Positions 33,040-55,149 of a stretch of DNA of 64,000 nucleotides are shown piece by piece. Every line of letters starts with the position of its first letter. Within the stretch, counting starts at the first letter, position 1. The notes under the pieces are model-generated. The model saw only the letters and a program-made list of their open reading frames with translations. It was not told where the DNA came from and made no database searches. Origin of the DNA: Scyliorhinus canicula (Eukaryota); the NCBI RefSeq assembly GCF_902713615.1, contig NC_052147.1, forward strand, positions 157,702,771 through 157,766,770, in the 5' to 3' direction. Position numbers and translations under genes: made by a program.

Positions 33040-34190
33040 ATGACAAAGTCCCCATAAGAGATTATTGTGTAAAATTAAAGCGCATGGGATTGGGGGAAGT
33101 ATATTGAGGTGGATAGAAAACTGATTGGCAAAGAGGAAAAGAGTAGGAATTAATGGGTCCTTTTCAAATTGGCAGGCAGTATCTAGTGGGGTGCCACAGG
33201 GATCGGTGCTGGGACCCCAGCTATTCACAATATATATTAATGATTTGGAAGAGGGAACAAAATGTAACATCTCAAAGTTTGCAGATGATACCAAGTTGGG
33301 TGGGAGCGTGAACTGTGATGAGGATGCAGGGATCCTGCAGCATGATCTGGACAGGTTGGGCGAGTGGGCAAATCAATGGGAAATGCAGTATAATTTACTT
33401 TGGAAGCAAAAACAGGAAGGCAGATTACTACCTGAATGGTTGTAAATTGGGAGAGGGGAGTGTGCAGCGGGACCTGGCTGTCCTTGTGCATCATTCACTG
33501 AAGGTAAGCATGCAGGTGCAGCAGGTGGTAAAGAAGGCTAATGGTATGTTGGCCTTCATTGCGAGAGGTTTTGAGTATAGAAGCAGGGATGTGTTGCTGC
33601 AATTATACAGGACCTTGGTGAGGTCACACCAAAAATATTGTGTGCAGTTTTGGTCTCCTCTGAGGAAGGATGTTCTTGCTCTCGATGGAGTGCAGCGAAG
33701 GTTTACCAGACTGATTCCAGGGTTGGCGGGACTGTCATATGTGGAGAGATTGATGAGGTTAGGATTGTTCTTGCTGGAGTTCAGAAGAATGAGGGGGGAT
33801 CTCATTCTTATAATATTCTAACAGGACTAGACAGGGTAGATGCAGGGAAGATGTTACCTATGATGGGTGTGTCCAGAACCAGGGGTCACAGTCTGAGGAT
33901 TCAGGATAAACCATTTTGGACAGAGATGAGGAGACATTTCTTCACCCAAAGAGTGGTGAGCCTGTGGAATTTATTGCCACAGGAAGTAGTTGATGCTAAA
34001 ACTTTGAATATATTCAAGAGGCGGCTAGATATAGCACTTGGGGAGAATGGGATCAAAGGCTACGGGGAGAAAGCAGGATTAGGCTATTGAATTGGATGAT
34101 CAGCCATGAGCGTGATGAATGGTGGAGCAGGCTCGAAGGGCCAAAAGGCCGCCTCCTGCTCCTATCTTGTATGTATGTATCTACGTATGC
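33040..34190 (+). mobile_element. CR1 LINE 3' portion, frameshifted
   Basis: [40 protein letters not shown]; (TATG)n tail. Confidence 0.9.
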
Positions 34191-34699
34191 CAGGTGGAGG
34201 AGAAAATCCACTGTTAGTTAGTTTTGGTTCACTGTGTCAGTGAGACTTTATCCACTCATTGTAGATCAATCTTCCTCGATTTGGCACTCTGACAAGACAG
34301 GCTTTTAAGACTCGCTGAAGAGTACTCGTTCAAGATGATTTCCTAGTTTTACTGAGGTCGGGAAGTTGCCCCATTCATTTATCTCAGATTTATCAAGAAA
34401 TCACACTTGAGAAAAATATCCTATGGATTGGGAGGGCAAATTTAAATGTTCCAAACCTATGCGTATTCATCTGTTTCAATTTAGTGGATGAAATATTGCT
34501 AAAGTGCAAACCTGCAATTTAGTGACAGACGTGAGCAAGCAGTAGGATGTTTTCCATTTATTTTTTAAATATGTATCATGATTTCCTTTCTCAGACTAAT
34601 TTAGCCGATCCTTGCCATAATCTGTTTCCTATAAGCGAGGTCCAGGAGCAAATCGTTGACTGAGAAACATTAAAATGGTTGAGCACATCCTACTTGGGC

Positions 34700-35345
34700 A
34701 TCTTTTGGGCTTCACCTGTTGAACACGACGAAAACCAAGTTTATTCTCTTTAATAGGACAAAGTCTCACTCTACCTGTGATCACAAAATGTTAACGCTCG
34801 ACAACTCCGAACTTGAGCAAGTTTCCACATGCTCCTATCTGGCTGGACCATGGTTTGACTTTTAATTCCCACACTGACATTTTACAAGCTAAGGTTATGT
34901 CTAGACTTGTTTATCTGAATTGGAACAAGACCTGTTTTACTCACTGTACCAAGTGCACCCTAATTCCAATGCCTGCATTTAATTACGACGACCCACATTT
35001 ATAAAATGGTCTCGTAAACCTTTCTTGGTAAGTTAGACACACTCTGCAATTGGATTTGTGACCGGTTCCCCTTTTCACACCCATCACTGTGACCCATACT
35101 CCCTGATTAACTGGCCCTCATTGCGCACAAGGCACCAACTCCACTGGCTTTGGTTAATTTATCGATCCTTGCTCGGGAAAACGCCATGGTTACATTTACC
35201 TGTCACTTCGTACAATCTGAAGTCATGTGACTTGATCAAATCAGTCGCTGCAAGAACGAGCAGTATTTGGTCCTAATTAATTTCAGTTTGGGGCTGCAGG
35301 TGACTGGAACGGATTACAACTAAAGCTGAAGCAAGCTAATTTTAT
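34700..35345 (+). mobile_element. Decayed L2-group LINE ORF2 C-terminal fragment
   Basis: IWLDHGLTFNSHTDILQAKV and TGSPFHTHHCDPYSLINWPSLRTRHQLHWLWLIYRSLLGK. Confidence 0.65.
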
Positions 35346-35390
35346 GCCTTCTGCCATAGGGGTAAAGACTGTGTTGACTGATACTTGTTT

Positions 35391-35699
35391 GGGCGGCATG
35401 GTAGCACAGTGGTTAGCACTGTTGCTTCACAGCTCCAGGGTCCCGGGTTCAATTCCCGCTTGGGACACTGGGCGGAATCTGCACGTTCTCTCTGTGTCTG
35501 CGTGGGTTTCCTCCACATGCTCCGGTTTCCTCCCATAGTCTCGAAAGACGTGCTGTTCGGTGAATTGGACATTCTGAATTCTCCCTCTGTGTACCTGAAC
35601 AGGCGGCGGAATGTGGCGACTACGGGATTTTCACAGTAACATCATTGCAATGCTAATGTAAGCCTACTTGTGACAGTAATAAAGATTAAAGATTATATT
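35391..35699 (+). mobile_element. tRNA-derived SINE with a different (L2-type) 3' tail
   Basis: Same head and core as the other SINEs, then tail cggaatgtggcgact..ttttcacagtaac..aagcctacttgtgac..aataaagatta. The tail also occurs at 39105-39180, 42052-42135 and 62775-62853. Confidence 0.75.
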
Positions 35700-35967
35700 G
35701 TTGGATTAACTGTCACTTCTCTTCCAGGACTGTGCAGGTACAGTGGATGGCCATGTTAAATTGCCCTTTAGTGTCCAGCGCATACAATGACCCACTCATT
35801 AGTCCATTGATCTTGTAACAGATATTGGGCAGCATTCTCCAGTTCCCCAGCTGCGTGTTTCATGGTTGCGCACCATTCGCTGGCGACAGGATTCTATCTT
35901 TCTCCCGCTTGTGCGGGCAGGGATGAACTGCCGGCGGGCAAAGTGAATCACAGTGGCAGGGGAAGAA

Positions 35968-38188
35968 GGAAGGTAGAATCAGATGTAAAGGTTTTACAGT
36001 TAAATAAAGGTAATTACAGGCGCATGAGGGAGGAACTGACGAAAATCGACTGGAAGCAGAGCCTAGTGGGAAAGACAGTAGAACAGCAATGGCAGGAGTT
36101 TCTGGGAGTAATTGAGGACACAGTGCAGAGGTTCATCCCAAAGAAAAGAAAGGTTATCAGAGGGAGGATTAGGCAGCCATGGCTGACAAAGGAAGTCAGG
36201 GAATGCATCAAGGCAAAGAGAGAGCCTATAATGTGGCAAAGAGTAGTGGGAAGTCAGAAGATTGGGAAGGCTACAAAAACAAACAGAGGATAACAAAGAG
36301 AGAAATAAGGAAGGAGAGGATCAAATATGAAGGTAGGCTAGCCAGTAACATTAGGAATGATAGTAAAAGTTTCTTTAAATACATTAAAAACAAACGGGAG
36401 GCAAAAGTAGACATTGGGCCGCTCCAAAATGACGCTGGTAATCTAGTGATGGGAGACAAGGAAATAGCTGAGGAACTTAATAAGTACTTTGCGTCCGTCT
36501 TCACAGTAGAAGACATGAGTAATATCCCAACAATTCAGGAAAGTCAGGGGGCAGAGTTGAATATGGTTGCCATCACAAAGGAGAAGGTGCTAGAGAAACT
36601 AAAAGGTCTGAAAATTGATAAATCTCCGGGCCCAGATGGGCTACATCCTAGAGTTCTAAAGGAGATAGCTGAAGAAATAGTGGAGGCGTTAGTTATGATC
36701 TTTCAAAAGTCACTGGAATCAGGGAAAGTCCCAGAGGATTGGAAAATCGCTGTTGTAACCCCCCTGTTCAAGAAGGGAACAAGAAAAAAGATGGAAAATT
36801 ATAGGCCAATTAGCCTAACCTCGGTTGTTGTCAAAATTTTAGAATCCATCGTTAAGGATGAGATTTCTAAATTCTTGGAAGTGCAGGGTCGGATTAGGAC
36901 AAGTCAGCATGGATTTAGTAAGGGGAGGTCGTGCCTGACAAACCTGTTAGAGTTCTTTGAAGAGATAACAAATAGGTTAGACCAAGGAGAGCCAATGGAT
37001 GTTATCTATCTTGACTTCCAAAAGGCCTTTGACAAGGTGCCTCACGGGAGACTGCTGAGTAAAATAAGGGCCCATGGTATTCGAGGCAAGGTACTAACAT
37101 GGATTGACGATTGGCTGTCAGACAGAAGGCAGAGAGTTGGGATAAAAGGTTACTTTTCGGAATGGCAACCGGTGACAAGTGGTGTCCCGCAGGGTTCAGT
37201 GTTGGGGCCACAGCTGTTCTCTTTATATATTAACGATCTAGATGACGGGACTGGGGGCATTCTGGCCAAGTTTGCCGATGATACAAAGATACGTGGAGGG
37301 GCAGGTAGTATTGAGGAGGTGGGGAGGCTGCAGAAAGATTTAGACAGTTTAGGAGAATGGTCCAAGAAGTGGCTGATGAAATTCAACGTGGGCAAGTGCG
37401 AGGTCTTGCACTTTGGAAAAAAGAATAGAGGCATGGACTATTTTCTAAACGGTGACAAAATTCATAATGCTAAAGTGCAAAGGGACTTGGGAGTCCTAGT
37501 CCAGGATTCTCTAAAGGTAAACTTGCAGGTTGAGTCCGTAATTAAGAAAGCAAATGTAATGTTGTCATTTATCTCAAGAGGCTTGGAATATAAAAGCAGG
37601 GATGTACTTCTGAGGCTTTATAAAGCACTAGCTAGGCCCCATTTAGAATACTGTGAGCAATTTTGGGCCCCACACCTCAGGAAGGACATACTGGCACTGG
37701 AGCGGGTCCATCGGAGATTCACACGGATGATCCCAGGAATGGTAGGCCTAACATACGATGAACGTCTGAGGATCGTGGGATTATATTCATTGGAGTTTAG
37801 GAGGTTGAGGGGAGATCTAATAGAAACTTACAAGATAATGAATGGCTTGGATAGGATGGACGTAGGGAAGTTGTTTCCATTAGCAGGGGAGACTAGGACG
37901 CGGGGGCACAGCCTTAGAATAAAAGGGAGTCACTTTAGAACAGAGATGAGGAGAAATTTCTTCAGCCAGAGAGTGGTAGGTCTGTGGAATTCATTGCCAC
38001 AGAGGGCGGTGGAGGCCGGGACATTGAGTGTCTTTAAGACAGAAATTGATAAATTCTTGATTTCTCGAGGAATTAAGGGCTATGGGGAGAGAGCGGGTAA
38101 ATGGAGTTGAAATCAACCATGATTGAATGGTGGAGTGGACTCGATGGGCCGAATGGCCTTACTTCCGCTCCTATGTCTTATGGTCTTA
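35968..38188 (+). mobile_element. Young 5'-truncated CR1 LINE with a 643-aa uninterrupted RT ORF (36179-38110)
   Basis: [49 protein letters not shown]. One frameshift near 36220; 3' tail tcttatggtctta. Confidence 0.95.
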
Positions 38189-38768
38189 ATTACGGCCGCT
38201 GTTTACAATTTATTTCTGTCATACAGTATTTTGAAATTGCAAAAATGACTTTTGTTCAAACATTTTAAATGTTTTATACTTGTTCTTTTTTCTCCTGTTC
38301 TGTCCCTTCCACCCCCCCCCCACCTTCTATTTTTAAAAATTAATTTTAGTAACATTGTTCCTGTGTAGTCCAACTCACCTTATTATTCCTGGTTTTATTT
38401 CATTTCGAAAGTCAAAATTTCAATTCCTGTTTTTTTTTTCTGCTCCCAGTCCTCTATTTTGAAGGGTGGAAGCAAATTCGGAATATTCAGACTTTCATTG
38501 CGTGGAAGTTGGTTTCAAAAGATGCTTTTTCAGCCAATCAGAAGCCCTGAAGAGTTAGAAGATGACATGGTCATTTCAATCCAGTCTGTCTTTGACACAT
38601 TTTCATGCATCAAACATACAAGTCTCACTTTTGTAGTTGGGTGCATTTCTGAGGGAGGTCGGGGCTTTAGCCTATTTCAGTGATGTTCTCCAAACTGCTC
38701 TCAAATTCCACCATTAGGGTCACTAGCGTGTGGACAATGGGTTCCTTCATCAGGAATCAAGCTGAATA

Positions 38769-38996
38769 GGGCAGCACGGTGACACAGTGGGTTAGCCCTG
38801 CAGCCTCACGGCGCCGAGGTCCCAGGTTCGATCTCGGCTTTGGGTCACTGTCCGTGTGGGGTTTGCGCATTCTCCCCGTGTTTGCGTGGGTTTCGCCCCC
38901 ACAACCCAAAAGATGTGCAGGCTAGATGGATTGGCCACGCTAAATTGCCCCTGAATTGGAAAAAACGAATTGGGTACTCTAAATTTATAAAAAGAA
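38769..38996 (+). mobile_element. tRNA-derived SINE, short A-tailed type with 16-bp TSD
   Basis: aggaatca(a/c)gctgaat at 38752-38767 and 38997-39012. Confidence 0.9.
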
Positions 38997-39937
38997 AGGA
39001 ATCACGCTGAATGTGGACATGGCAAAATTGTGCCCATGCAGGCCATGATGGTAAAGAGAGAGAGAGACTGTCTCTGTTTCAGTCGCCCAGCAGGCATTAA
39101 TAACAATATAATAATAATCTTTATTGTCACAAGTAGGCTTACCTTAATACTGCAATGAAGTTGCTGTGAAAAACCTAGAGAATGATTCACCTTCTGTACT
39201 GACCATTGATACTCAAGACCTAAACCTAACAGGAGGCAGAATTGGCAGGCGATAGATACCAGGCTGTGTTACCTTTATTCAAATTCTATTATATGCATAT
39301 TGAGCTACGTAACCTTTAGGCTGAAGGGTTTGCCCACTGGGAATGGACAGTGAGGTGGCCTGAGTCACAACAGTAATACATGCGTATGTGGCGATGAAAT
39401 CCACTCCAGAATTACTGCTACTAGTAAATAAATATAGCCATGGCACTTAAACAAGCTAATACCTGTGAAAGTATTGCATTCAAAATGGTTGCCAAATTTC
39501 AGATTTGTTCATCAGAATTATATTTACTTCGCCAAATGTATTCTCACACTTGCCCACAAAAGACATGAAGAACCATTCTCTTTTTAAAATTATTGTGAAG
39601 CTGCGTCCACTGCCCTTTCCGGCAACACATTCCAGATCACAATGCCTCGCATCTCCCCAATGTTTATCTTGTTGATGATCTTAAATCCACAGCCGCTGGT
39701 TACTGACCAGGCCCCTCAGTGGAAACAGTTTTTCTTAATTTACTCTATCATAATTTTGAACATCTCTATTAAATCTCCTCTTGGCCTTCTCTGCACAATT
39801 CCAGCATCTTCAGTCTCTCCACATTAACTGAGGTCTGAGGTTCCTAGCACCACTCCAGGACATCTCCTCCACCCTGTCTATTAGAGGCCATCTGGGCAGA
39901 ATGTCTGTTCTCACACTGGCTTTTGTTTCTGTTTTAG

Positions 39938-40079
39938 TGATTAAAACCGGAGAGAGCGGCCTGACTGTCTTCCGATTGCTCACCAAAGAAAACCGCTGGG
40001 CCTGGGTTCAGGCAAACGCAAGGCTGGTATACAAAAATGGAAAACCGGATTACATCATTGCAACACAGAGACCTCTAGT
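39938..40079 (+). CDS. ahr1: AHR exon 9 equivalent (PAS-B/PAC)
   Basis: gttttag|TG, then (M)[48 protein letters not shown]|gtgagt. 142 bp. Confidence 0.95.
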
Positions 40080-40179
40080 GTGAGTTACCAGACCATAAGG
40101 TTCAATCTGTCTCTGTTATCATTCCTTTCTTGACTTCTGTTTCCCTTTCAACGCTACATTCGCATTCTTTAGTTCTTGA

Positions 40180-41200
40180 AGAATGGACGGTTAGTTAATG
40201 GACAGAAAGCAGACAGTGGACATAAATGGGGCATGTAATGAACAGTGAAGCTATTTACATATTAATGGCTGCGATAAAGAGACAGTGAGTAATGTATCTA
40301 GGTTTGCTGATGACACCAAACTTGGTGGGAAGGTAAGCTGCGGTGAGAACACAGAGAGGCTGCAAAGAGTTTTAGACAGGTTGAGCGAGTGAGCAACAAG
40401 ATGGCAGACGGAAGACAATGTACGGAAGTGAGACGTTACACACTTCGGCCGTCAGATTAGAAAATCAGAATTTTGTTTTCAACTCTGGAACATGTAAGCG
40501 TTGATGTTCAAAAAGATTTGGCTGTGTTTGTACAAGGAATTCAGAAAGTTATCATACGGCTGCAGCAAGCAATTGAGAAGGTAAATGGCATGTTGGCCTT
40601 GATTGTGGGGAGATCGGAGTGCAGGAATACAGATGTCTCACTACAGTTGTACAGAGTGAGATCGCATTTGGAGCATTGTATAAATTTTTGGTCTCCACAT
40701 TAAAGAAAGGATGTACTTGCATTGTAGGTAGTACAAGGAAGGTTCACGAACTTGGTCCCTGCAACAAGGACGTTGTCCAATGATGAGAGGCTGAACAAAT
40801 TGAGTTTATATTCTCTGGAGTTTAGAAGAATGAGAGGTAATCTCACAGAAACACACAAGATGCTGAAGGAGTTTGATAGGATGTTTCCGTTGGCAGGGGA
40901 ATCTTTACCACGGGGGCACAAGTCTCAGGATAAGGGCTTGATCATTTAAGACTGAGATGAGGGGGAACTATTTCATTCAAAGGGTTGGGAATCTTTGGAA
41001 TTTTCCACCCCAAAGGTTGTACATGCTCCATCATTGAACATATTTAAAGAGGGATAATCAGATTTTTGCTCTCTCAGGGAATTAAGGGATATGGGGAGGG
41101 GGCGGGAAAATGAAGTTGAAGCCCAAGATCAGCCATGATGGTATTGAATAGTGGAGCAGGGTCAATGGGCTGTGTGGTCTACTGCTATTCCTATCTCTTG
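40180..41200 (+). mobile_element. Decayed CR1 LINE fragment
   Basis: SRFADDTKLGG and YSLEFRRMRGNL, with many stops. Confidence 0.82.
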
Positions 41201-42036
41201 TTATTTTCATGTGCATGTGTCAGTATGATATTGCTTCCTACTTTTTAATGCAGAGCAGTGAAAGGTCTTCGTGTGTCAGATAATCATTTGCAGGAGTGGT
41301 TTCTAAAGCTGACAAAATGAAAGACATGGCAGAGTCTGTGAGATACTAAAACTTACGCTCATCTTTGGTAGACGGGTGAGGAGGAGCCTACATCTTTCTG
41401 GCACACCGGAGGAGGGAATTCTCCTCTGAATTCTCCTGGAATCATGAGGCTTAGCCCTGCCTCACCATTCAATGGGGGTTTCCCTTCCCCCGCCCCCTCC
41501 TGGTAATTGCCCCTTTCTACTCTATATGATTGCGAAGGTTAGCAGCGCAGGTTGCTGATCCCCCTCCAGATTTAATGGCCCTGTTCCCCGGGTGAAAGGA
41601 GAGGAGGGTTTATAATGGCATCCATTCCTTGGCGTTAGCTGAAGGTCACAATCCCGCCCGAGATGACTGGAGATGTACGAGGCAAGTTTTTTACAGAGAG
41701 GGTGGTGGGAGCCTGGAACACTCTGGAGGGGAAGGTAGTGGAAGCAGATACGATAGTGACTTTTAAGGGACGTCTTGACAAATACATGAATAGGATGGTA
41801 ATAGATAGATATGGTCCCTGGAATGGTAGGGGTTTCAGTTCACACAGGCAGCATGGTCAGTGCAGGCTTGGAGGGCTCTGTTCCAGTGCTGTAATTGTGT
41901 TTGTTCTTTGAGACACTCAGCAGCTGCTTTAATTTCGATCTTTGGAGGGCATCTATGCCTCACTTGCCTCTTCTGATATTGCAGTAGTTTCCTTTTTTAC
42001 AATCACGCACTCCCCTATGATGGTAGAAATGGTGGA

Positions 42037-42509
42037 TGATGCACCATCAATGAAATGAAAATCGCTTATTGTCACGAGTAGGCTTCAATGAAGTTACTGT
42101 GAAAAGCTCCTAGTCGCCACATTCCGGCGCCTGTTCGGGGAGGCTGGTACGGGAATCGAACCGTGCTGCTGGCCTGCTTGATCTGCTTTAAAAGCCAGCG
42201 ATTTAGCCGAGTGAGCTAAACCAGACTCAAGTCGTAGTGAAGTTCCAAACAACAGGCTTTAATATGCTAGATGTGAGCCAGGCAGTGGTCGTACAGAGAA
42301 AGGCCGACTGCCAGCCAGTATGAGCTCTTATACCCCGCCTTGTAGGCGGAGCTACCAACCTCTCAGCCAATCGGCGGGGAGTCACATGACCAGCCACAAC
42401 CAATTGGCAGAGAGGCACATGACTTGCCTGGGCCAATGGGCAGCGAGGCTGCTGTACCAATGGCAGCTTGGTTCTTTGATAATATGGTCTCTCTAGCCAT
42501 ACTACCACA
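42037..42509 (-). repeat. 3' LTR, interrupted by a ~170-bp insertion
   Basis: tgatgcaccatcaat|insert 42052-42223|actcaagtc...tactaccaca. Confidence 0.92.
42052..42223 (-). mobile_element. Short SINE with L2-type tail inserted into the Gypsy 3' LTR
   Basis: Minus strand shows a tRNA-like head (tggtttagctcac..ggttcgattccc) and the tail tcacagtaacttcattgaagcctactcgtgacaataagcgattttcatttc. Confidence 0.78.
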
Positions 42510-44227
42510 TTCACCCCTTGTTGAGAAAGAAGCGGGGGGGGGCGGTGGGAAGGAGAGACGGGGGGGGGGGGCAGTGGTGGGGGTGTAAAACTGGTAGTAT
42601 GACTAGAGACCTTCTCGGGTAGTACCGAGGTAACTATGGCTGCCCACTGGCCTGCGACGAACGTGTAAGAAAACCATGCAGTATACAGTGTACAAGAGAG
42701 AAAAACAACAATAACCATCGTAATAATAATGAGAACAAAACAAAAACAACACAGGCAAGGAACATATGCAGAGCGTGAAAAAGGTCCATCAAATTGACTC
42801 GATCAGCCGGATGGGTGCCTTCGGTGTCTTGCCGGACCTGCGCAGCGGCGCCGGTGACGTTGGAGCGATGGTCGTCCGTGACTCCGGGAGCTGTGGTCGC
42901 GGTCCTGTGTCCGTACTCCTGGTCAGAGCTGGTGGTAGCCGGGCCGGGGGGAGGGGTTCCTGTGCGCTGGGTTGCGGGGGCACTGGGGGCGGTCGGGACT
43001 GGGGGAAGGGTGTTGGTGCTGGGGGGTGTGGCCGCACTCCGGCGGGTGCCAGGTCCCAAAGGGAGACCGTGTCCTGTCGTCCGTCGGGATAGTCCACGTA
43101 CACGTACTGCGGCTTCACGTGGAGTAACTGGACTCTTTCAACCAACGGGTCGGACTTGTGCACCCGCACATGCTTCTGGAGCAGAATGGGCCCGGGAATG
43201 GCCAGCCAGGTCGGGAGTGGGGTCCCAGAGGAAGACTTCCTGGGGAAAACAAGAAGACGTTTATGAGGTGTTTGATTCATGGCAGTACAGAGGAGAGACC
43301 GAATAGAGTGGAGGGCGTCTGGGAGGACCTCTTGCCAGTGGGAGACTGGGAGATTTCTGGACCGTAGGGCCAGCAGGACGGTCTTCCAGACCGTACCGTT
43401 CTCTCGCTTGACCTGTCCGTGACCCCGGGGGTTATAACTGGTCGTCCTGCTAGAGGCGATGTGCCTGCTGAGCAGGAATTGACGCAGTTCGTCACTCATA
43501 AAGGAGGACCCCCGGTCACTGTGGATGTAGCGGGGTAACCGAACAGGGAGAAAATGGAGTGGAGGGCCTTGATGACAGTTGAAGTGGTCATGTCGGGGCA
43601 GGGGATGGCGAACGGGAAGCGGGAGTACTCGTCAATCACATTTAAGAAGTATGTGTTGCGGTTGTTGGAGGGGAGGGGACCTTGAAGTCCATACTAAGAC
43701 GTTCAAAAGGGCGGGAAGCCTTTTTCAGATGCGCCTGCTCGGGGCGGTAGAAGTGCGGCTTGCACTCCGCGCAAATGTGGCATTCCCAGGTTACAGTCCT
43801 GACCTCCTTGATGGAGATGGGCAGGTTGCGGGTCTTGATAAAATGAAAAAGTCGGGTGACCCCTGGATGGCAGAGGTCTGCGTGGAGGGAGCGGAGGCGG
43901 TCCACCTGTGCGTTGGCGCAAGTACCGCGGGACAGGGCATCAGGAGGCTCGTTGAGCTTCCCAGGACGATACAAAATATCATAGTTGTACGTGGACAACT
44001 CGATCCGCCACCGCAAGATCTTGTTGTTCTTGATCTTGCCCCTCTGTGCATTATCGAACATGAAGGCTACTGACCGTTGGTCTGTGAGGAGGGTAAACCT
44101 CCTGCCGGCCAGATAGTGCCTCCAATGTCGCACAGCTTCGACAATGTGCCTCCTGTGCCTCCTTTTCCACCGAGGAATGGCGGATTTCGGAAGCGTGGAG
44201 GGTTCGTGAGAAAAAGGCCACAGGTCT

Positions 44228-44552
44228 CACGGTAGCATGGTGGTTAGCATCAATGCTTCACAGCTCCAGGGCCCCAGGTTCGATTCCCGGCTGGGTCACT
44301 GTCTGTGTGGAGTCTGCACGTCCTCCCCGTGTGTGCGTGGGTTTCCTCCGGGTGCTCCGGTTTCCTCCCACAGTCCAAAGATGTGCGGGTTAGGTGGATT
44401 GGCTGTGCTAAATTGCCCGTAGTGTAAGGTTAATGGGGGGATTGTTGGGTTACGGGTATACGGGTTACGTGGGTTTAAGTAGGGTGATCATTGCTCGGCA
44501 CAACATCGAGGGCCGAAGGGCCTGTTCTGTGCTGTACTGTTCTATGTTCTAT
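44228..44552 (+). mobile_element. Young CR1-tailed SINE inserted into the Gypsy RNase H region
   Basis: gtct duplication; near-identical head and core to the 7726 and 21815 copies. Confidence 0.9.
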
Positions 44553-47053
44553 GTCTGCCCGCTTGGTTGAGGGTGGCCGCCAGAGATACATCGGACGCGT
44601 CGCTCTCGACCTGGAATGGGAGGGACTCGTCGATAGCGCGCATCGTGGCCTTTGCAATGTCAGCTTTGATGCGGCTAAAGGCCTGGCGGGCCTCTATCGA
44701 AGGGGAAACGTGGTGGATTGGATGAGGGGGCGGGCTTTGTCGGCGTAGTTAGGGACCCACTGGGCATAATAAGAAAAGAAGCCCAGACAGTGTTTGAGGT
44801 CTTTGAGGGAGTTGGGAAGGGAGAGTTGCGTTAGGGGGCGCATGCATTCGGGGTCGGGGCCTATCACTCCGTTACGCACTACGTAGCCGTGAATGGCTAG
44901 ACGGTCGGTGCTGAACACGCACTTATCCTTATTGTCGAGGTTAAGGAGTTTTGCGGTTCGGAGGAATTTACGGAGGTTGGTGTCGTGGTCCTGCTGGTCA
45001 TGGCCCCAGATGGTGACATTGTCGAGTTACGGGAAGGTGGCCCGTAAATCGTATTGGTCAACCATTCGGTCCATCTACCTTTGGAAGACCGAGACCCTAT
45101 TCGTGACACCAAAGGGAACGCTTAAAAAGTGGTAGAGTCGCCCATCCGCTTAGCACGCAGTGTACTTTCGGTCACCCGTGCGGATGGGGAGCTGGTGGTA
45201 GGCGGACTTAAGGTCCACAGTGGAAAAAACTGTTGTACTACGCGATCCTGTTAACCAGGTCGGAGATACGGGGAAGAGGATACGCGTCCAGCTGTGTAAA
45301 CCTGCTGATGGTCTGACTGTAGTCAATGACCATTCGGTTTTTCTCCCCAGTCTTATCTACCAGCACTTGTGCCCGCCAGGGACTGTTGCCAGCCTCGGTA
45401 ACCCCTTCCTTCAGGAGCCTTTGGACCTCGAACCTGATGAAGGTCCTGTCCTGGGCACTGCACCGTCTGCTCCTGGTGGCGACGGGTTTGCAATCCGGGG
45501 TGAGGTTCGCAAACAGGGAAGGGGGGTCGACCTTGAGGGACGCGAGGCTGCAGACAGTAAGGGGGGGAATAGGGCCGCCGAATTTAAAAGTTAGGCTCTG
45601 CAGGTTGCACTGAAAGTCCAGTCCAAGAAGTGCCGGTGCGCAGAGGCGGGGGAGAATGAGAAATTTATAATTTTTTAAAACCCTTCCCTGGACCGTGAGG
45701 TCCGCCACGCAGCACCCGGTGATTTGGACGGAGTGCGAACCAGATGCCAGAGCGATTTTATGCTTTACGGGATGAACGGGGAGCGCGCAGCGTCTTACCG
45801 TGTCGGGGTGGACGAAACTCTCCAGAGTCCAGTCGGCAGCTTGTTTCACGACCGTTGAGGTGGATCTGTGTGGTCGCCGTGGAAAGCGTGCGGGGCCGTG
45901 ACTGGTCCAGTGTCACCGAGGCGAGTCGTGGCAGGAACGCGGAATCGTCATCCAGGACGGAGTAATCGCTTGCGGGGTCCTCCGTGCCGATCCAAGATGG
46001 CGGCGCCCGTCGGCCGCATGTGGTGGGGGATGAACAAGATGGCGGCGCCCTGGAGTCAAACGTGGAGTCGGGTGCCCAAAATGGCGGCGCCCGGGGCTCG
46101 CACGTGGCATCGGGAGCCCAAAACGGCGGCGGCCGTGGATCACTCGTGGTGGTGGGGGGGGGGGGGGGGGGGGGGGGTGGAGGCAGCGAGGTCCGCAGGC
46201 CACACGGGGCCCTAGAGGAGTGCGGGGGGGGGGGGGGGGGGGGCGCGGTCTCTGTCTGGAACGGCAGCGACCGACTTGGAGAGGCAGACGGCTGCGAAAT
46301 GGTCATTGTTGCTGCAGCTCTTGCAGACTGCAGTGCGGGCTGGGCAGCGCGGGCGGGAGTGCTTGGTCTGCCCGGAGAAATAGCAGCGGGGGCCCGTGGG
46401 CTTGTCTGGGCATCCTGCAGCGCAGGTCTGGGGGTCCAAGTCGGCAGGGGTGAGGGGGCTGTGCCACGCTGCCCAAGGGGCTGCCGCGCGGCTGGGGGCA
46501 TATGCGCGCGCGTTGCGTTCAGCGACTTCCAAAGAGGATGCAAGGGTCCGTGCCTCAGTGAGGCTGAGAGCGTCCTTCTCTAAAAGTCTCTGCCGTATTT
46601 GGGGTGACTGCATGCCCGCCACAAAGGCATCCCTAATCAAGAGTTCGGTGTGCTCCGCAGCTGTGACCTGCGGGCAGGCGCAGTTTCTCCCTAGGACAAT
46701 GAGGGCCCGATATGATTCGTCGAGGGACTCACCGGGGAACTGTTGCCTTGTTGCCAGGAGATGCCGCGCGTAGACTTGGTTTACTGGCTTGGTGAAGTGC
46801 CCTTTTAGGAGATCCATGGCGACATCATAGTCCAGTTCGTCCTCTATCATCGAGTAAACGGCGGTGCCCACGCATGAGTGGAGGATGTGGAGTTTCTGCT
46901 CCTTTGTTGGTCGATTTTCTGTAGTAGTGAGATAGGTATTGAAGCACGCCAGCCAATATTTAAAAGTTGCTGACGCGTTTGCAGCATGCGGGCTGATTCG
47001 GAGGCATTCTGGCTTAATCCATAGTTCCATTTTCAAAGTCTAGCGTATTAAAT

Positions 47054-47356
47054 TGATGCACCATCAATTGGACTCGAGTCATATTGAAGTTCCAAACAAC
47101 AGGCTTTAATACGCTAGATGTGAGCCAGGCAGTGGTCGTACAGAGAAAGGCCGACTGCCAGCCAGTACGAGCACTTATACCCCGCCTTGTAGGTGGAGCT
47201 AACAACCTCTCAGCCAATCGGCGGGGAGTCACATGATCAACCACAACCAATTGGCAGAGAGGCACATGGCTTGCCTGGGCCAATGGGCAGCGAGGCTGCT
47301 GTACCAATGGCAGCTTGGTTCTTTGGTAATGTGATCTCTCTAGCCATACTACCACA
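47054..47356 (-). repeat. 5' LTR (303 bp)
   Basis: Minus strand reads TGTGGTAG...TGCATCA, with CCAAT boxes, TATAAG and ATTAAA. About 14 mismatches to the other LTR by eye. Confidence 0.93.
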
Positions 47357-47479
47357 GTGGATGGTTAAAAGGACCAGGGATTTCCTGGAAAATGAGCGAA
47401 CGTTGGACTGGTTACAACACAATTGCATCTCCCCTGCTTCCCTCCCCTGTTAATAGCCACTGGATGGCATGAACAACCT

Positions 47480-50400
47480 GATCGATGCCAGAATCGGGAA
47501 ACACAATTGGGCGGAAAATCGTGAGTCAGACGAAAATCATGGCCTGGGCGGGGTGCCCGACGGATTGCCAGGCTCCGGTACCTCGACAGCGGTGTCAATG
47601 CATTCTACTCTGTACACACTGTAAATGATGTTGGCATCTCGTTACCGGGCCTGTCCCGCGATGCTCTGCCTCCACCAGGATGAATTATGGACGGCGAGTT
47701 TCACTGTGCTTTTAAAAATTGGGAAATAAGCACCATGGCTGCTGAAGGAGAAAGAGGAGGTAGGACATGTTCCCAGAGGTGCAATCGTGGGCTGCCAGTC
47801 CTGCTGCTGGCATGGCTGGCTGAGGGGGAACGTGGGGGGGGGGCATCTACCAGGGCCAGGAGGGAGTAGCAGCGGTGACCAGGATGGGCCATGGGGGTCA
47901 GGGTGAGCCCCCCGTGACCGTTGTGTCCTGGCATGGACCGTTATTTCTGTGGCCTGCAAGGCAGCCATCTTGCTGCGCACCCCACTGACCATCCTACCGT
48001 GGCCCCTAGTTGAGCAGAATGACACCAGCCATGTGGATACCCCCGCACTCCACAACCCCCTCCTCAGAAGCGGGCGCCAACCGCTGGTGGGGCATCACGT
48101 GGTCCATCCAAGGGGGACACCCACATTAGCCCCCTACAGGTGGGTGCTGGACAGGGGCTGCAGAGCTGGCATGGGTAGCACTATCCACTGGCGCACCTGC
48201 TAGCAGGGACAGGTGCTGGAGACAGAGGTCTCCACTGTGCCAGGTACAGACAGGGTGTGGAGGGCAAAGTTCCGGGGCAGCGGCCAGTGGTGGGTTTGGG
48301 GACGGGGGAGGAGAGAGAGGAGGACATGCAGAGGCGGGGGCTGCAGTGCAGGCAGGGGCCACCATTGCCCGTTGGACCTGGTTGGGCATGGGGGTAAACA
48401 CCATGCTAACGTGTCTGCCTTTCACCTCCTGGAGACAATGGACTTCAGAATCCAACCAGGAATGGTGGCCTTCAATCTGGCCGCTGCAGCCTTGGGCACT
48501 GAGGCTGTACGAGCAGGAGCCGCTCAGGGAGGGCCGTGTAACAGCGAAGCCTGGCCCAGAGGAACAGGAGCTAGCCAGTGAGGATGGAGAGCCGGCCGTC
48601 CAACAGACCGAGGAAGAGGAGGTGGGAAAGAAGCGCCACATAAGGCCTCGTGTCCAGGCATGCCGTCGAAGACTCCGGCGAAGCAGGGGGAACCATACGC
48701 TATATCTGCAGAATCATGCCACACCTGGCACCGCAGGGGTATGGGGAGTGCACCCACTCAAGGTCATGGTCGTCGTGAACCTTTACTCCTTGGGGTCCTT
48801 CCAGATGCCAAGCGGCAACCTGTCCATGATCTCACAGACCTCAGTGCACAGGTGCAACCATCCTGCCACGAAGGCCCTGTAAGCCTGCCCAGCACAATAT
48901 ATCAAATTCAATGTGGACTGAGCCCACCAGGATGCCCGGGCAGCGGGATTCACGGCCATTGCCAGGATGCCCCAGGTCCAGGGGGTGATCGACGGGATGC
49001 ATGCCCCCCATGAACACCGTCCCATGACACATAGGTCTTCACAAACTGAAAGGGGTTCCACTTGATGAACGTGCAAGTGGTGTGTGACCATGAGCTGCGC
49101 ATCATGCACGTCTGTGCCCGATACATGGGCAGTGTGCATGACGCCTTCATCCTGGCACACTCGATGATTCCTGGCACCTTCGAAACACAGCCTCCCCCTT
49201 CAGTCCAAAGATGTGCATTGTAGGTGGAATGGCCATGATAAATTGCTCATAGTGTCCAAAACTTGCCCTTAGTGTTGGGTTGGGTTGTGGGGATAGGGTG
49301 GAGGTGTTGACCTTGGGTAGGGTGCTCTTTCCAAGAGCCGGTGCAGACTCAGTGGGCCGAATGGCCTCCTTCTGCACTGTAAATTCTATGATAATTCAAG
49401 CTGTTAGATTGACTCATGGGCAACAGGGGTTATCCGCTGCAGTCGTGACTGATGGCGCCTATCTGGGGGGCCACAAACCGTCGCGGAGACCCACTACAAC
49501 AACACCCATACAGTGACCAGAGGTGTGATCGCATGTGCATTGGCATCCTGAAGATGCGGATCAGGTGCCTGGGCCGCTCTGCAGGGGCCCTCCAGTATAG
49601 AGCTAGGTGGGTCTCTCACATCATGGAGGCCTGCTATGTCCTCCACAACATCGCACAGGAGAGGAGACGTACTGGAGAAGGGGGATGAACACCGGGCCTC
49701 ATCCGACAAGCAGGATGTGGAGGAGGGCCAGGTGGGAAGGGCACATGGCCGGGCAGGCACAGAAAGCTGCACAACGCGTGCACCAAGGTCAGCGTGCACG
49801 AGACACTGTAATCGCCACCAGGTTTGACAAGGGGGCCAGGCTGACAGCACGAACATCCCATCTCACCCACCCCCTTCCAATCGACCACCCGCTCCTGTGT
49901 TCACCCTCCGTGATTCCTACCTGCCTCACTACATGGGTGCAGGGCCTGGGTTGGTAGTAACAGAGGGTCTGGGCCATGGGATAGAGGATGATGATGACCT
50001 GCTCTAAAGCTATGTCGAGGTGGAGCCGCAGATGGTACATCAGGAGTAGAGGGGGCCTGCTCTGATTTCCACCCTGCGACCCATGTCCCCTTTGGTGGCC
50101 GTCCTCTGGAGCGTCCAGGCCTGGATGGGTCCAGCAGTTGCTCGGGTGTCCCAGATGGTGCGGTGCCACTTGGTTGCCCGTTGTCGACCTCTGCCTCTGT
50201 GACTGACCTCTCTCCGGGCCAACCAACCATGTCTAGTGCCCGCTGCTCCATGGCGGTGAGGGCCACAAGTCCGGTGGTCTCCTCTCTCTGTGATTATGCA
50301 CCGCGTTCTCCTGGAAGGGGGGGGGAAGACAGAAGGCGCAGTGTGAGGCAGTCAGACTCGAGCAGCATAGGGTGTGGGCAGCTGGTGGTCGTTGTGAGAA

Positions 50401-51011
50401 GGGCTCCGGCCATGGCGAGCAGTATGGGTGCTGGCCTGAGTGCAGGGTGGGAAGCAAGCTCACTGCCTGCGTGGGGGGTTCGGGGGAGGGGATATTTATG
50501 GCTGTGTGCGATGAGGTTTAATACTAGGGGAACGGTACTGCCTACTCACCCTGGCTGCCTTGAGGAGGTCATGCAGCTTCTTCCTGCACTGTTAGCCGGT
50601 CCTGGTGGTGGCCTCTGCCACCTCACCCACGCCTGGTGTATGGCGGCGGGTGGCAGCCTCTTTCCCATCCCAGGGAACAGAATGGAGCGCCTCTCCTCCA
50701 TGGCATTCAGCAGATCTCCAGCTTTGTGTCCGTGATCTGGGGTGCCATTCTTTGTGCTGCCACCTTGTTGGCTGGGATGAGTGTATGTGGGGAGTGGAGT
50801 GCTGATATGCGGCTGCAACTTGTTAGTCTCTCGAGTGGCAATCCCGACCCAGGCAAATCAGACTCCGTTATCATTGGAATCGCTCGAGTTCCCCAGTGCT
50901 AGCCAGTGCTAGCCCCTTAATGGATCATGAATTGCTCTGGAACCAGCGCCAATTTAGTTGCTGTGGAAGTCCACTGACTCAGCTCCGGCGTCAAAACAGA
51001 GAATCCCTCCC
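47480..51011. mobile_element. Decayed autonomous-type PIF/Harbinger transposon: HARBI1-like DDE transposase (+, about 48440-49820) convergent with a Myb/SANT gene (-, about 50180-50750)
   Basis: Transposase pieces NLYSLGSFQMPSGNLSMISQTSVHRC, QVQGVIDGMH, NVQVVCDHELRIMHVCARYMGSVHDAFIL and IGILKMRIRCL..ACYVLHNIAQ. Myb pieces LLNAMEERRSILFP and QQCRKKLHDL. Right TIR AGAGAATCCCTCCC at 50998-51011; left TIR not clearly visible. A SINE piece is inserted at about 49200-49392. Confidence 0.85.
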
Positions 51012-51639
51012 CTGTTTTTGTTCCCAGTTGTTTGCGTTCTGAAGGCCGAGCAGTTGCTGGACTTGGTCCCTTTGCAAATGGTCATTCTTCATGTGAACTG
51101 GATAGCAAGATATTTCTGGAGGCACCACAGACAAGCATCTCTTGGTGTGTCCACAGAAACAGAGGATGGAGAAATGAAATGGCATTCCTGAGTGACGATT
51201 CCACCCTCACTCTGCCCTGTGAGGAGAGCATACTCAACCACAGGAGTGATAACACTGACCAATAAGTATATTTTATGATTTTAAAAAACTTTAAAGTAAA
51301 CACAGAGTTAACCATATTAACAGCAAAGATATAGCTATAAAGTTCTTCAATAGAAGTGCAAAAAACTTTAACTCCCTACCTACACCTGTCAATATACATT
51401 CCAATTAAGCAACCCAATGCAGTTTAAATGCCACTTGTAAATAAAGTTAACAATCAGGTTCAATTGCATTTCTGTGCAGACCTTTGGAGAGAGACCCTTT
51501 CAGGAACGACCTGAAAGCCTTCTATCTTGTCAGGCTAAAACTCTATGGCAATCTGCAAAACCACACACAAAAAATGCCTTTAATTTTTGATCTGATTTTG
51601 AAAGCAAATTATGGTGAACCTGCATAAAACACTAATTCA

Positions 51640-52190
51640 GCCACAACTAGAGCATTGTGTCCAATTCTGGGCACTGCATTGCAGGAAGTAGGTGCCAGAA
51701 TTGGAGACGGTGCAGAAAATGTTCATGAGAATGGTCCCAGGGATGAAGGATTTTGGTTGTGTGGATAGATTGGAGATGCTGATCTGGTTCCCCTTCGAGG
51801 CGAGATAGCCGAGAAGAGATTTGATAGAGTAGTTCCAGATACTGAGGGTTCTGGAGAGTGTAGATGGGGAGAAACTGTTCCCATTGGTGGAAGGCTCAAG
51901 AATCAGAGGGAACAGATTTAGGGTGATTGGGAAAAGAACCAAAGACAAAGTGAAGAAAAACATTTCACACAGCGAGTGGTTAGGATCTGGAATTCACTGC
52001 CTCAGAGGGTGGTGGCTGCAGGTTCAATTGTGGCTTTAGAAGGGAATTGGATAAGCATCCACGAAGAGTGAATTTGTAGTGTTACGGGGAGAAACCATTG
52101 TAGTGGGACACGGTGAATTGATTTTACAGAGAGCTGACACAGACACAATGGACCGATTGGCCTCTAGTGCTATATCCATTCTGTGATTTA
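51640..52190 (+). mobile_element. CR1 LINE 3' fragment
   Basis: PQLEHCVQFWA and SERVVRIWNSLP-like motifs, followed by a CR1 3' UTR. Confidence 0.8.
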
Positions 52191-52810
52191 AACAGAAATG
52201 GAATGACTATCTGATGTGGTTGAAGGGTTTCCAGGTCAGTGCAGTGGGGATTATTTACCATCTTGCATTATGAACACGATCCAGCCTGGACAATGGATGA
52301 ATTGGGAGCGTTCAATGTTGTTCATTGCTCTGTTTCCAGCATCTGATGTCCCTCAAACAAATTCACCTCACTCCTTAGCCCTAATCATTTGATCATTTAA
52401 ATAACCCAAGTTGTGTAGTTCATCTGCTTATTTTATTCTTCATCTTTTCCCCTCTTTGTCTCCCCTGAAAGACATTGGTTCCACGTGATGCTGTTCGTTG
52501 CTAGAGAGTCCAGACTCAGTGTATTGGGAGGTTATTCATGAGAACCCTGCCTTCGCACCCTTTCCCCTCGCCTGAGGTGTGGTGACCCTCAGGTTAAATC
52601 ACCACCAGTCAACTCTCCCCTCAAAGAGGAAAGCAGCCTACTGTCATCTGCGACTTTACCTTGCCTATTGTGAGATTACCCAACCATGGTGGTATCACAG
52701 CCCACCCTGACACTGATCTTTATCCTGTTCCTGGGCATGTTCCATTTTCAGGAAGTGATCTAAAGTGGGAATCCTCGCTCATATTGACTCCCTCCAAGTT
52801 CAGGAATGTG

Positions 52811-53350
52811 GGCCGGGATTCTCCCCTATCTGGCAGGGTGGGGGGGTCCTGGCGCACCTTTAGGAGCTAGGCCCGCGCCGGAGTGTTTGGCGCCCCGCTG
52901 ACCGACGCGATCGGCCTTTGGCGCAACGGCTGGCCGAAAGGAGTCGGCGTGAGTCCGTGCATGCGTCGGAGGATCAGTGGCCGCTGACGTCACCTCGGCG
53001 CATGCGCGATGGAGGGGGTCTCCGCCTCCGCCATGGTGGCCCATGGCACAGGCCTGCCCGCCGATCGGTGGGCCCCGATCGCGGGCCAGGCCACCGTGGG
53101 GGCACCCCCCCGGGGTCAGATTGCCCCTCCCCCAGGACCCCAGGGCCCGCTCGCCCTGACAGCGGCGGGAGAGGCCTGACAGCGGCGGGACTTCGGCCCA
53201 TCGCGGGCCGGTGAATCGCCGCGGGGGCCCGCCGACCGACGCGGCGCGATTCCCGCCCCCGTCGATTCCCGGGTGGTGGAGAATGCCAGCCACGGCGGGG
53301 GCGGGATTTACGCCAGCCCCGGGCGAATCTCCGACCCCCGAATTCCGCCC
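52811..53350. mobile_element. GC-rich Harbinger-type MITE, same subfamily as 9224-9957
   Basis: Left TIR GGCCGGGATTCTCC, partial right TIR GAATTCCGCCC; flanks gtg/atg. Confidence 0.8.
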
Positions 53351-53637
53351 ATGATCTTGTCTCTAAGTCCAACCTAACTTGATCACCTAACTGGAGATGG
53401 ACCCTGGATGTGTTTTAAATTGTGCATGGTGGCACATCACACTGTGTGGTGCATTTTCGCAATGAGCAATAGTGTTGTAAGGGGGTGGTCGATTTTAAGT
53501 CTTTGATGATGTTTGATTTCACATTTTCCAAGTACTGAGCTGATGTAACTACCTGAAGCCTAATCTATACGCCCATATGATATTTTAGGCATTTGAGGTG
53601 ACTAATTTTTTCTTATTGTTATTTTCCACTTACACAG

Positions 53638-55081
53638 GGATGAGGAAGGTGGGGAGGAGCTCCGGAAACGTTCGCTCCATCTGCCATTCACCTTTGCCAC
53701 AGGAGAGGCCTTGCTGTACCAAGCAGCCTGCTCCAATCCGGGACTCCCTGACCCTTGCCAGGCCAAAGGGAGAAGAAGAAAGAATGCCTCGAGTAAAACT
53801 GAGAAGGAACAGAGAAATGTGGATCCCAGTTCCCTTTTAGGTGCGATGATGCAACAGGACGAGTCTGTGTACGTGTGCCACCCTGCTTCGGAGCCCAAGC
53901 ATTCTTACAGCAGCAGTTTCTTCAGCGAGGCTGGTGGCTCTGGATGCACAGCAGGGGATACCTGGCAGAGCGATACAAGTGAGCTCGGCCAGCAGGGGGT
54001 TAATGCTGGGCAGCTCGATCCCTTGCTGTCCACACTGGACTCCCTTAATCTGGCCGGGGAAGAGAACTGTTTAAATAGCGACTTATTCAGTGCACTTGAA
54101 AATCTGGGACTTGGTGCAGACGACTTGGAGCTCCTGCTGTTTGATGAGAGGATGGTGAGGTTGGATACGAACCCGGAGTACATACCGTCATTAAATGACA
54201 TTTTGACAAATGGGGAGATTTTATCCTATGTCCATGACTCGATTGTGACTAAAAATGATCAGGAACTCCCTGGAATCCAGCAACCATATTCAACACAGGA
54301 TTCTTCCCAAACGTTGGCCACAAACCTCTTGGTATATTCACCCAAACCTCTGGAAAAAGAGGCTCAGTATTCCTCCCAACATTTGCAACATCACCAGCAG
54401 GCATTCCATTCAGCCCATCAGGTACTCCAGCAGCAAGACCTCCTGCTACAGGCCCAGCAGGATGACCAACCCTGGAGTCAGCACTTAGAACCCAGTAATG
54501 GGCAGCCTCAAATGACTCAGGAGGAACCCCTTCAACAGCTCAAAGTGCACCTGCACACACAGTGCCAGTTTAAACCAAAAAGCCACGAGCAGCTTCTAAT
54601 CAATGGGATGCATTCCCACTCCCCAGCAAACTCCCCGTTGAGAGCTAATCATCGATGGCCCAATTACAGTTGCCAGTCAGCAGCCGATCAAGTCGCTTCT
54701 TACAAACTGGATCACCTCGCTGGCTATTGTGCTGGTCAGAACCTGGATTCCTATCAGCAACCTCAGTCCACATGTCCGCCTCTTGCTCCAAGTGGGATCA
54801 TTCCAAGCTCAGGTTCTCACATGAGTGGGGCACCTTGCATGGGGTTAACAATGAATGGAGGAAGCGGTGAGGATGGCCAGTATCAGGGTTTTCTAACCAC
54901 ATCATCTACTTATCAGACTTTCCCACAGAAGCAGCAGATTCAGGGAACACCACTCTGCCAGTATCAGCCCTTGAATCCTTCCAGTAATCACTTTGCGGAT
55001 CTATCTCCAGAACAACTGCAGCCTGCGGTGGACCCTTATGGGTTCTTAGCAGCTTTGGTATCTCAGGACAGCTCCCACAAG
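53638..55081 (+). CDS. ahr1: AHR exon 10 equivalent (transactivation domain: acidic, Q-rich, P/S/T-rich)
   Basis: tacacag|G, then DEEGGEELRKRSLHLPFTFATGEALLYQ, continuing into ORF 53711-55111. Contains the AHR motifs DPSSLLGAMMQQDESVY and SLNDILTNGEILSYVHDS. Likely donor AAG|gtaacc after 55081; the in-frame stop at 55109-55111 applies only if unspliced. Confidence 0.9.
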
Positions 55082-55149
55082 GTAACCAGCCTACAGCTGC
55101 CACCCAGCTGACAGACTTATTTATTCACATCTGTTGGAGCAGGAATCTG

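Follow-up and report, generated by a model that had tools for sequence, protein, structure and literature searches.

A candidate self-primed Gypsy clade without a chromodomain, and its predicted internal primer, in the genome of Scyliorhinus canicula

The stretch of Scyliorhinus canicula DNA analysed here (the window; 64,000 nt of contig NC_052147.1) carries on its minus strand a decayed Gypsy retrotransposon, whose primer-binding site (PBS) is the perfect complement of a segment, or arm, of its own long terminal repeat (LTR). The pairing and its polarity, the fixed 1-nt spacer between LTR and PBS, the compensatory change of both partners across families and the absence of a PBS starting with TGG are observed. 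Judged from sequence, self-priming in some form is highly likely, and the explanation that we favour, with moderate confidence, is that the element belongs, as a decayed copy, to a widespread Gypsy clade without a chromodomain, in which a cut after the AAA of the arm in the 5′ copy would release a self-primer of about 44 nt. The full picture is put forward more tentatively, as one that may well fail in some of its parts: a pan-animal, non-chromovirus Gypsy clade with an internal self-primer from the R segment, produced by a cut between AAA and RCC that would leave a long capped primer (or else a primer from the 3′ repeat), in which the arm would mimic a tRNA D-arm, alternate between local-stem and PBS-duplex forms and, in sharks, carry the poly(A) signal.

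The element is full-length and runs from 47356 to 42037. It has the features of Ty3/Gypsy elements, namely TG...CA LTRs, a 5-nt target-site duplication (TSD), a polypurine tract (PPT) and the order protease, reverse transcriptase (RT), RNase H and integrase. The LTR boundaries are set independently by the 3′ LTR and by the TSD (47357-47361 and 42032-42036), and the two LTRs are identical at 272 of 286 positions. The reading frames are broken by stops and frameshifts, and dispersed SINE-like repeats have inserted in the RNase H region and in the 3′ LTR. The features, in the order of the element, are as follows.

47357-47361, no strand: left 5-nt TSD
47054-47356, minus strand: 5′ LTR, 303 nt, TG...CA
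47174-47179, minus strand: TATA box (TATAAG), preceded by GC and CCAAT-like boxes; putative promoter
47146-47149, minus strand: transcription start predicted from motifs (TATA+32/33); initiator-like motif degenerate in this copy
47123-47163, minus strand: predicted hairpin centred on the predicted start, spanning U3/R and ending a few nt before the arm
47105-47118, minus strand: LTR arm, putative self-primer, with the 3′ end ATTAAA (47105-47110), then GCC
47054-47104, minus strand: loop, made up of the rest of R and U5; a predicted second helix, with mixed support, starts right behind the arm
47053, minus strand: 1-nt spacer (A) from the LTR-terminal CA to the PBS
47039-47052, minus strand: primer-binding position, perfect complement of the arm
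46212-47030, minus strand: gag remnant, ATG 23 nt past the LTR, tandem CCHC knuckles (the first degenerate here)
42789-45912, minus strand: broken pol, with protease, RT (YLDN motif), RNase H and an integrase with a proline-rich tail and without a chromodomain
44228-44552, no strand: dispersed repeat, probably a SINE, inserted in the RNase H region
42510-42519, minus strand: PPT and AA ahead of the 3′ LTR
42037-42509, minus strand: 3′ LTR, broken by an insertion (about 42051-42223); a single G>A change in its copy of the arm (42258-42271)
42032-42036, no strand: right 5-nt TSD

In the window copy, the terminal CA of the 5′ LTR is followed by a single A (47053) and then by 47039-47052. This segment is perfectly complementary, in reverse, to 47105-47118, from which 52 nt separate it. 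The initial annotation, which had pointed to this 14-nt LTR-complementary PBS and its arm, had the coordinates right. Among 3000 dinucleotide shuffles of the LTR, no complement exceeded 9 nt, where 14 nt are observed, and the fold of 47020-47160 (-38.9 kcal/mol, z -2.9) was equalled by none of 200 shuffles. The match is intact at 14/14 nt in 19 of the 30 closest copies, the window copy included, with departures that are mostly CpG-type changes. As only 23 nt lie between the LTR and the ATG, the leader has no space for another PBS.

In the host genome (4.2 Gb), a first look gave 3838 candidates for the window LTR and about 34,000-54,000 for pieces of gag and RT, which are lower bounds and not copy numbers. 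Four protein queries and one DNA query were used to pick 121 loci, one of them without gag and six without the alignment anchor, leaving 114 mutually related copies for analysis, two of which repeat another locus. The alignment was anchored on the LTR end and the TAAA-RCC context, so that positions 1-4, numbered starting at the arm's 3′ end, are partly selected by the anchor and positions 5-12 are free of it. Watson-Crick pairing is found at positions 1-12 in 97-112 of the 114 copies, at positions 13-14 in 85-86 and beyond these in 7-57. Across the many families represented, positions 5, 7, 8, 9, 11 and 12 each show two to four pair types, with both arms changing in step, and positions 5-12 are perfectly paired in 63/114 copies compared with a mean of 12.4 (maximum 23) for shuffled partners. 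Eleven different, fully self-paired 12-mers are present in the host genome. The spacer is an A in 113 of the 114 copies and none of the 114 PBSs begins with TGG, in agreement with the earlier claim that a PBS for a tRNA 3′ end is lacking. Mag-like elements of the same genome have CA, one base and then TGG, and the longest self-complement in five Mag-like and three Gmr1-like control elements is at most 5 nt.

One shark family (16 copies) has a fixed mismatch at position 13, and in some families this position does not covary. An independent-pairs test within families gave just one or two supported pairs, too few for power. In one family, arm and PBS are discordant at position 7 in 8 of 75 copies. 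Recombinant mapping in one family, with 88 copies typed and 33 of them with both LTRs, found arm position 7 discordant in 4/32, not clearly higher than the 0-3 of about 32 seen at other polymorphic non-CpG columns. As a separate observation, the 5′ and 3′ LTRs of a single provirus can carry different, otherwise recurrent arm alleles (L304, L306, L337, L352, L378, L392, L411 and L420); the PBS follows the 5′ arm in five of these and the 3′ arm in two, and such split alleles could come from gene conversion or intermolecular strand transfer.

A search with RT-RNase H, at a threshold of E 1e-20, returned 2269 proteins. Those listed, 120 homologues, are 58-92% identical and include sequences from rays, corals, insects, a tunicate and a nematode, the closest named ones being from catsharks and rays. 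An alignment of 50 sequences led to 88 loci from metagenomes and metagenome-assembled genomes (MAGs), loci that carry no host assignment; 43 of these were testable, having the start of gag preceded by 110 nt or more. A perfect inverted repeat of at least 10 nt lies just upstream of gag in 34 of the 43, compared with 19 of 1613 random positions. These metagenome and MAG loci fall into 23 families that are about 45-65% identical in RT-RNase H and have one fixed arm-PBS geometry: in 19 of them the arm pairs at 11-12 of 12 positions with the sequence one base past CA, perfectly so in 17. All 19 differ in PBS sequence, shuffled partners reach 7 at most and the random-position null gives 3/599; an LTR pair gives an independent definition of the LTR end in about ten families. 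The other four families fail this anchored test, one having a shorter loop (12-13 nt perfect in the inverted-repeat scan), one 10 pairs and a G-U, and two nothing. The compensatory covariation that the initial annotation had proposed as a check is thus found twice, among the shark copies and in 19/23 of these families, and the arm-PBS pairing is real, a clade-wide trait and very probably functional.

Such a pattern is highly unlikely to come from chance or from an inverted duplication that became fixed in a single family. Copies of one family are not independent and the independent-pairs test had too few pairs, which leaves some room for it, but 19 different paired sequences share one geometry among families that are this divergent. 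The inverted-repeat scan, the covariation in the shark and the result for 19/23 families refute it.

Several further observations concern the sources of these loci. One metagenome assembly (L047:4800-9300 and L084) holds at least three young families of the clade with LTR pairs that are 96-100% identical. Eight contigs of bacterial MAGs from GTDB (L127-L134) carry these animal-type retrotransposons, several with LTRs and a TSD, probably as host contamination. A search of IMG/VR found no relative.

None of the host tRNAs sampled fully complements the PBS, whether by its 3′ end or internally; a full match would have told against the earlier proposal. Mature tRNA ends are excluded as primers, since no PBS starts with TGG. 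In the nuclear sample, which is small (109 genes, 52 distinct, 10 anticodon labels), the best match is 5 nt, and none of the 52 distinct genes fully matches any of the eleven 12-mers. The window PBS pairs with at most 6 nt of any host mitochondrial tRNA. In one other shark family the PBS pairs over 11 nt with mt-tRNA-Met and in another over 10 nt with mt-tRNA-Ala, both in the D-arm; none of the 11 PBS types matches a host mt-tRNA at all 12 nt, and all of them match their own LTR. Because each PBS tracks its own LTR, an mt-tRNA is probably not the present primer. The arms themselves lie closer to mt-tRNAs than expected, with a mean mismatch of 3.06 compared with 4.0 and 4.3 in two nulls that ignore relatedness and the constraint of a local stem. 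The arm together with the next two bases (47103-47116 in the window, and homologous arms) resembles a tRNA D-arm, as seen against the mitochondrial loci L473 and L474, and one shark family has 13/14 nt in common with the D-arm of the host mt-tRNA-Met. In the non-shark families, position 10 can pair with +2 in 18/19 and position 9 with +1 in 17/19 (T-A, C-G, T-G), and the resulting local stem and the PBS duplex are mutually exclusive. We read the D-arm likeness as mimicry, ancestry or a common small-stem constraint, and not as the mark of a present primer.

For the shark copies, the position of the arm within the RNA can be predicted from the promoter. The first T of the TATA box lies 73-77 nt before the 3′ end of the arm in 95 of 114 copies, and 18 copies have no TATA box. 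Among the 96 TATA-bearing copies, an initiator-like YYAN[AT] has its A at TATA+32/+33 in 56, and such a motif occurs elsewhere between +26 and +37 only 9 times. We therefore predict that transcription starts about 31 nt past the TATA box and about 44 nt before the end of the arm, which would make the shark arm internal; TATA spacing and initiator position thus lend support, as a prediction, to the earlier estimate that the arm lies about 30 nt inside the transcript. In assembled RNA contigs, two LTR stretches showed no transcript starts, ends or poly(A) junctions. The argument is made for sharks only, as the invertebrate LTRs show no obvious TATA box. An inverted repeat centred on the predicted start is found in the window copy (47123-47163) and 15 other representatives of families, in LTRs whose sequences are unrelated; folding of these 16 representative copies gave z values from -4.4 to +0.7 (-0.7 for the window copy). 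Since the hairpin spans U3/R, it would be restricted to the RNA's 3′ copy. In several non-shark LTRs (L101, L108, L121 and L129), a pyrimidine tract followed by AG, resembling a splice acceptor, can be seen by eye shortly upstream of the arm.

The end of the arm is conserved beyond sharks. It reads AAA in 17 of the 19 non-shark families and is followed by RCC in 16 of the 19, and a second helix often starts at this AAA/RCC junction, and at roughly two thirds of the 23 loci examined its pairing probability is clearly above that given by shuffling the loop. A canonical poly(A) hexamer (ATTAAA or AATAAA) is found at the arm end in 100/114 shark copies and in 9/19 other families (10 if a shifted one is counted), and three loci (L050, L054 and L130) have a separate poly(A) signal further downstream. 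With the canonical hexamer in just 9/19 and AAA/RCC in most non-shark families, the conserved trait is the junction and not the poly(A) signal. The suggestion in the initial annotation that the hairpin hides the 5′ poly(A) signal fits the shark copies but just half of the other families.

In the mechanism that we favour, transcription would begin about 31 nt past the TATA box and the arm would lie at about +31 to +44 of the RNA. Arm and PBS would pair while the leader is made, and the second helix would stack at the AAA/RCC junction, as in the three-helix fold of Tf1. An element-encoded nuclease, by analogy RT/RNase H, would then cut at this junction; the capped primer left behind, about 44 nt long, would have its 3′ A paired with the first base of the PBS. 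The strong-stop DNA would span U5 and the remnant of R and jump to the 3′ LTR, and plus-strand copying of the primer would rewrite the PBS from the arm. The lock-step change of arm and PBS would follow from this rewriting in each cycle, as expected from standard LTR reverse transcription. In copies whose arm has a poly(A) signal at its end, that signal would in addition be masked by the duplex at the 5′ LTR. Priming is read from the duplex because its polarity, its spacer and its position are those of a primer:PBS pair, because the leader offers no other site and because the PBS tracks the LTR; the covariation shows selection for the duplex and not that the duplex primes. Against a 44-nt primer stand its roughly 30 unpaired 5′ bases, before which plus-strand synthesis must stop, or which must be trimmed, and we know of no stop signal for this copying in the 5′ copy. 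The fixed mismatch at position 13 in the family of 16 copies implies that copying is not retained past position 12. A primer made by splicing was also considered and set aside as unneeded, the arm being contiguous in the DNA.

Three other functional readings bear on these points, all of them unlikely. The one that fares marginally best is of plain Tf1 type: the replicative RNA would start at or just before the arm and so provide a primer of 12-14 nt, with the TATA-directed start belonging to another transcript or being mispredicted. The duplex of 12-14 nt resembles the 11 nt of Tf1 (PMC7175516), the absence of covariation at position 13 in some families suits a short primer, and initiator-like bases are seen by eye at the arm start in L053 and 3 nt upstream of it in the window family; the constant TATA-arm spacing of 73-77 nt in 95/114 copies and the clustering of initiator-like motifs at TATA+32/33 in LTRs of unrelated sequence speak for a start further upstream. 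Slightly less probable is that the arm's 3′ copy supplies the primer: the 3′ end of the RNA would be trimmed to AAA and pair with the PBS, the U3/R hairpin forming a structured primer body. Such a primer would yield the sharp boundary at 12-14 nt, and most of the 16 representatives can fold the start-centred hairpin, which stops a few nt short of the arm and could form in the 3′ copy only. Its z value is nevertheless weak (above -1.5) in 7/16, no upstream poly(A) signal places a natural 3′ end at the arm, and the 5′ arm, just 52 nt from the PBS, should pair first.

The duplex might also be a structural switch, acting in poly(A) masking, packaging or translation, with something else as the primer, for example a tRNA 5′ fragment ending in the D-arm; we consider this improbable to much the same degree as the 3′-copy primer. 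The hexamer at the arm end in 100/114 shark copies and the resemblance of the arms to mt-tRNA D-arms (up to the 11 nt with mt-tRNA-Met and 10 nt with mt-tRNA-Ala, and the mean mismatch of 3.06) speak for this reading. A fixed external primer, however, would reset the PBS in every cycle, half of the non-shark families are without a canonical hexamer, and the nulls behind the mismatch comparison ignore relatedness and the local stem; the window PBS pairs over only 6 nt with any mt-tRNA, and the 11 PBS types match their own LTRs in full and no mt-tRNA. The self-primer cut from the 5′ copy of the arm thus stays our preferred reading.

As to the placement of the clade, no match to a chromodomain (PF00385) or SH3_Tf2-1 was found in five clade polyproteins and one more shark ORF, nor in the Pfam annotation of the 120 homologues listed; the chromodomain positive controls (L155 and L156) matched at 2e-15 and 3e-13, and both also matched SH3_Tf2-1. 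The host genome, searched with Pfam Chromo and SH3_Tf2-1, gave no chromovirus, and the SH3 matches that were fetched are Gmr1-like. In the best tree (421 RT-RNase H columns and 51 rows; a quick tree without bootstrap and with no named Tf1, sushi or Mag sequence), the clade has an SH-aLRT of 100 and lies in a non-chromovirus branch (97) as sister to a Mag-like family (86), and 15 rows, including all chromodomain-bearing ones, group apart (90). A position as sister to all chromoviruses is not rejected by the AU test (p 0.41), nor, narrowly, is a grouping with two fungal chromoviruses (p 0.059; p 0.59 in a smaller set), and smaller trees are unresolved at depth, with a long-branch warning. As the stem of the clade is long and a sister position stands unrejected, its self-priming may share an origin with that of Tf1/sushi. 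The earlier label of an apparently non-chromovirus lineage fits the missing chromodomain and the best tree, and is weakened by the AU tests.

Among Gypsy elements, self-priming is taken as characteristic of Tf1/sushi (PMC10085805, PMC6317226), and the literature links it to this group and Tcn1, the primer being located at the RNA's 5′ end. Tf1 uses an 11-nt pairing, a cut between bases 11 and 12 and a three-helix fold (PMC7175516, PMC10085805). Tf1, Tf2, Tj1, Tosmo1-3 and the Tf1/sushi group share with the clade an LTR-complementary PBS, the independence from a tRNA, a duplex of 11-14 bp and a helix flanking the predicted cut (PMC10085805, PMC4600332, PMC7175516). Unlike Tf1/sushi, the clade has no chromodomain or SH3_Tf2-1, has a tandem-CCHC gag and a YLDN RT, and its arm often overlaps the poly(A) signal; it is 26-34% identical in RT-RNase H to two chromoviruses. 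The Tf1 primer is the very 5′ end of the RNA, whereas the arm of the clade is predicted to lie 31-44 nt inside it. Outside chromoviruses, self-priming has been proposed for the plant Copia TAR lineage, with Houba and Osr-1 (PMC6317226), so that 'non-chromovirus' alone is not unprecedented. These elements and the Conserved Hairpin Site of fungal GalEa are likewise signatures of tRNA-less priming (PMC6317226, PMC5445492); TAR and GalEa belong to the Copia superfamily, unlike the Gypsy clade, and the hairpin of GalEa is located entirely downstream of its LTR.

A candidate among described relatives is Cigr-1 of Ciona intestinalis. In the Llorens 2009 supplement (PMC2774666), the Cigr-1 clade is given two CCHC arrays, an ILG protease motif, an integrase after RNase H, a lost GPY/F, no chromodomain and no env. 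All of these marker states match our clade, and some of the Osvaldo clade has the combination too. Among the matches listed is a homologue from a tunicate, at 60% identity. The clade's one ORF, about 1200 aa long, and its short LTRs also fit Cigr-1. Published supplements, searched for motifs of the clade, gave none, and no mention of the Cigr-1 primer turned up. The identity of the two clades is a lead only, as the comparison was made by marker description and not with a Cigr-1 sequence. Tandem CCHC in gag, compact size and the 1-nt spacer are also common to the Mag lineage (A, B and C clades). The family of the host that we take to be Mag-like from its motifs has a PBS beginning with TGG, lacks a self-complement and is 27-33% identical to the clade in RT-RNase H. 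Among the full-text literature, no report of self-priming in this clade was found, subscription papers and Repbase lying outside that coverage; Repbase Reports may contain entries on self-primed Gypsy elements in marine invertebrates, and an earlier description may thus exist.

The self-priming mechanism is already known in Tf1/sushi, and the new part would be the predicted internal primer, which, if true, would require both a cut and a stop in copying, neither of them needed by Tf1; its predicted end is one single defined position. A second abundant animal clade (more than 30,000 gag candidates in the host genome at first look) with a covarying self-complementary PBS would mean that tRNA-free priming arose again or is older than thought. 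Such elements would probably escape silencing by tRNA 3′ fragments, and they are missed by annotation that requires a tRNA PBS.

Two other families stand out in the same genome, an abundant Mag-like one with a TGG PBS (L135-L142) and a Gmr1-like one, with the integrase before RT, whose PBS starts with AATTGG (L145-L154). Finally, the window has long plus-strand ORFs at 36173-38110, 33180-34090 and 53606-55111, the first two amid LINE-like dispersed repeats.
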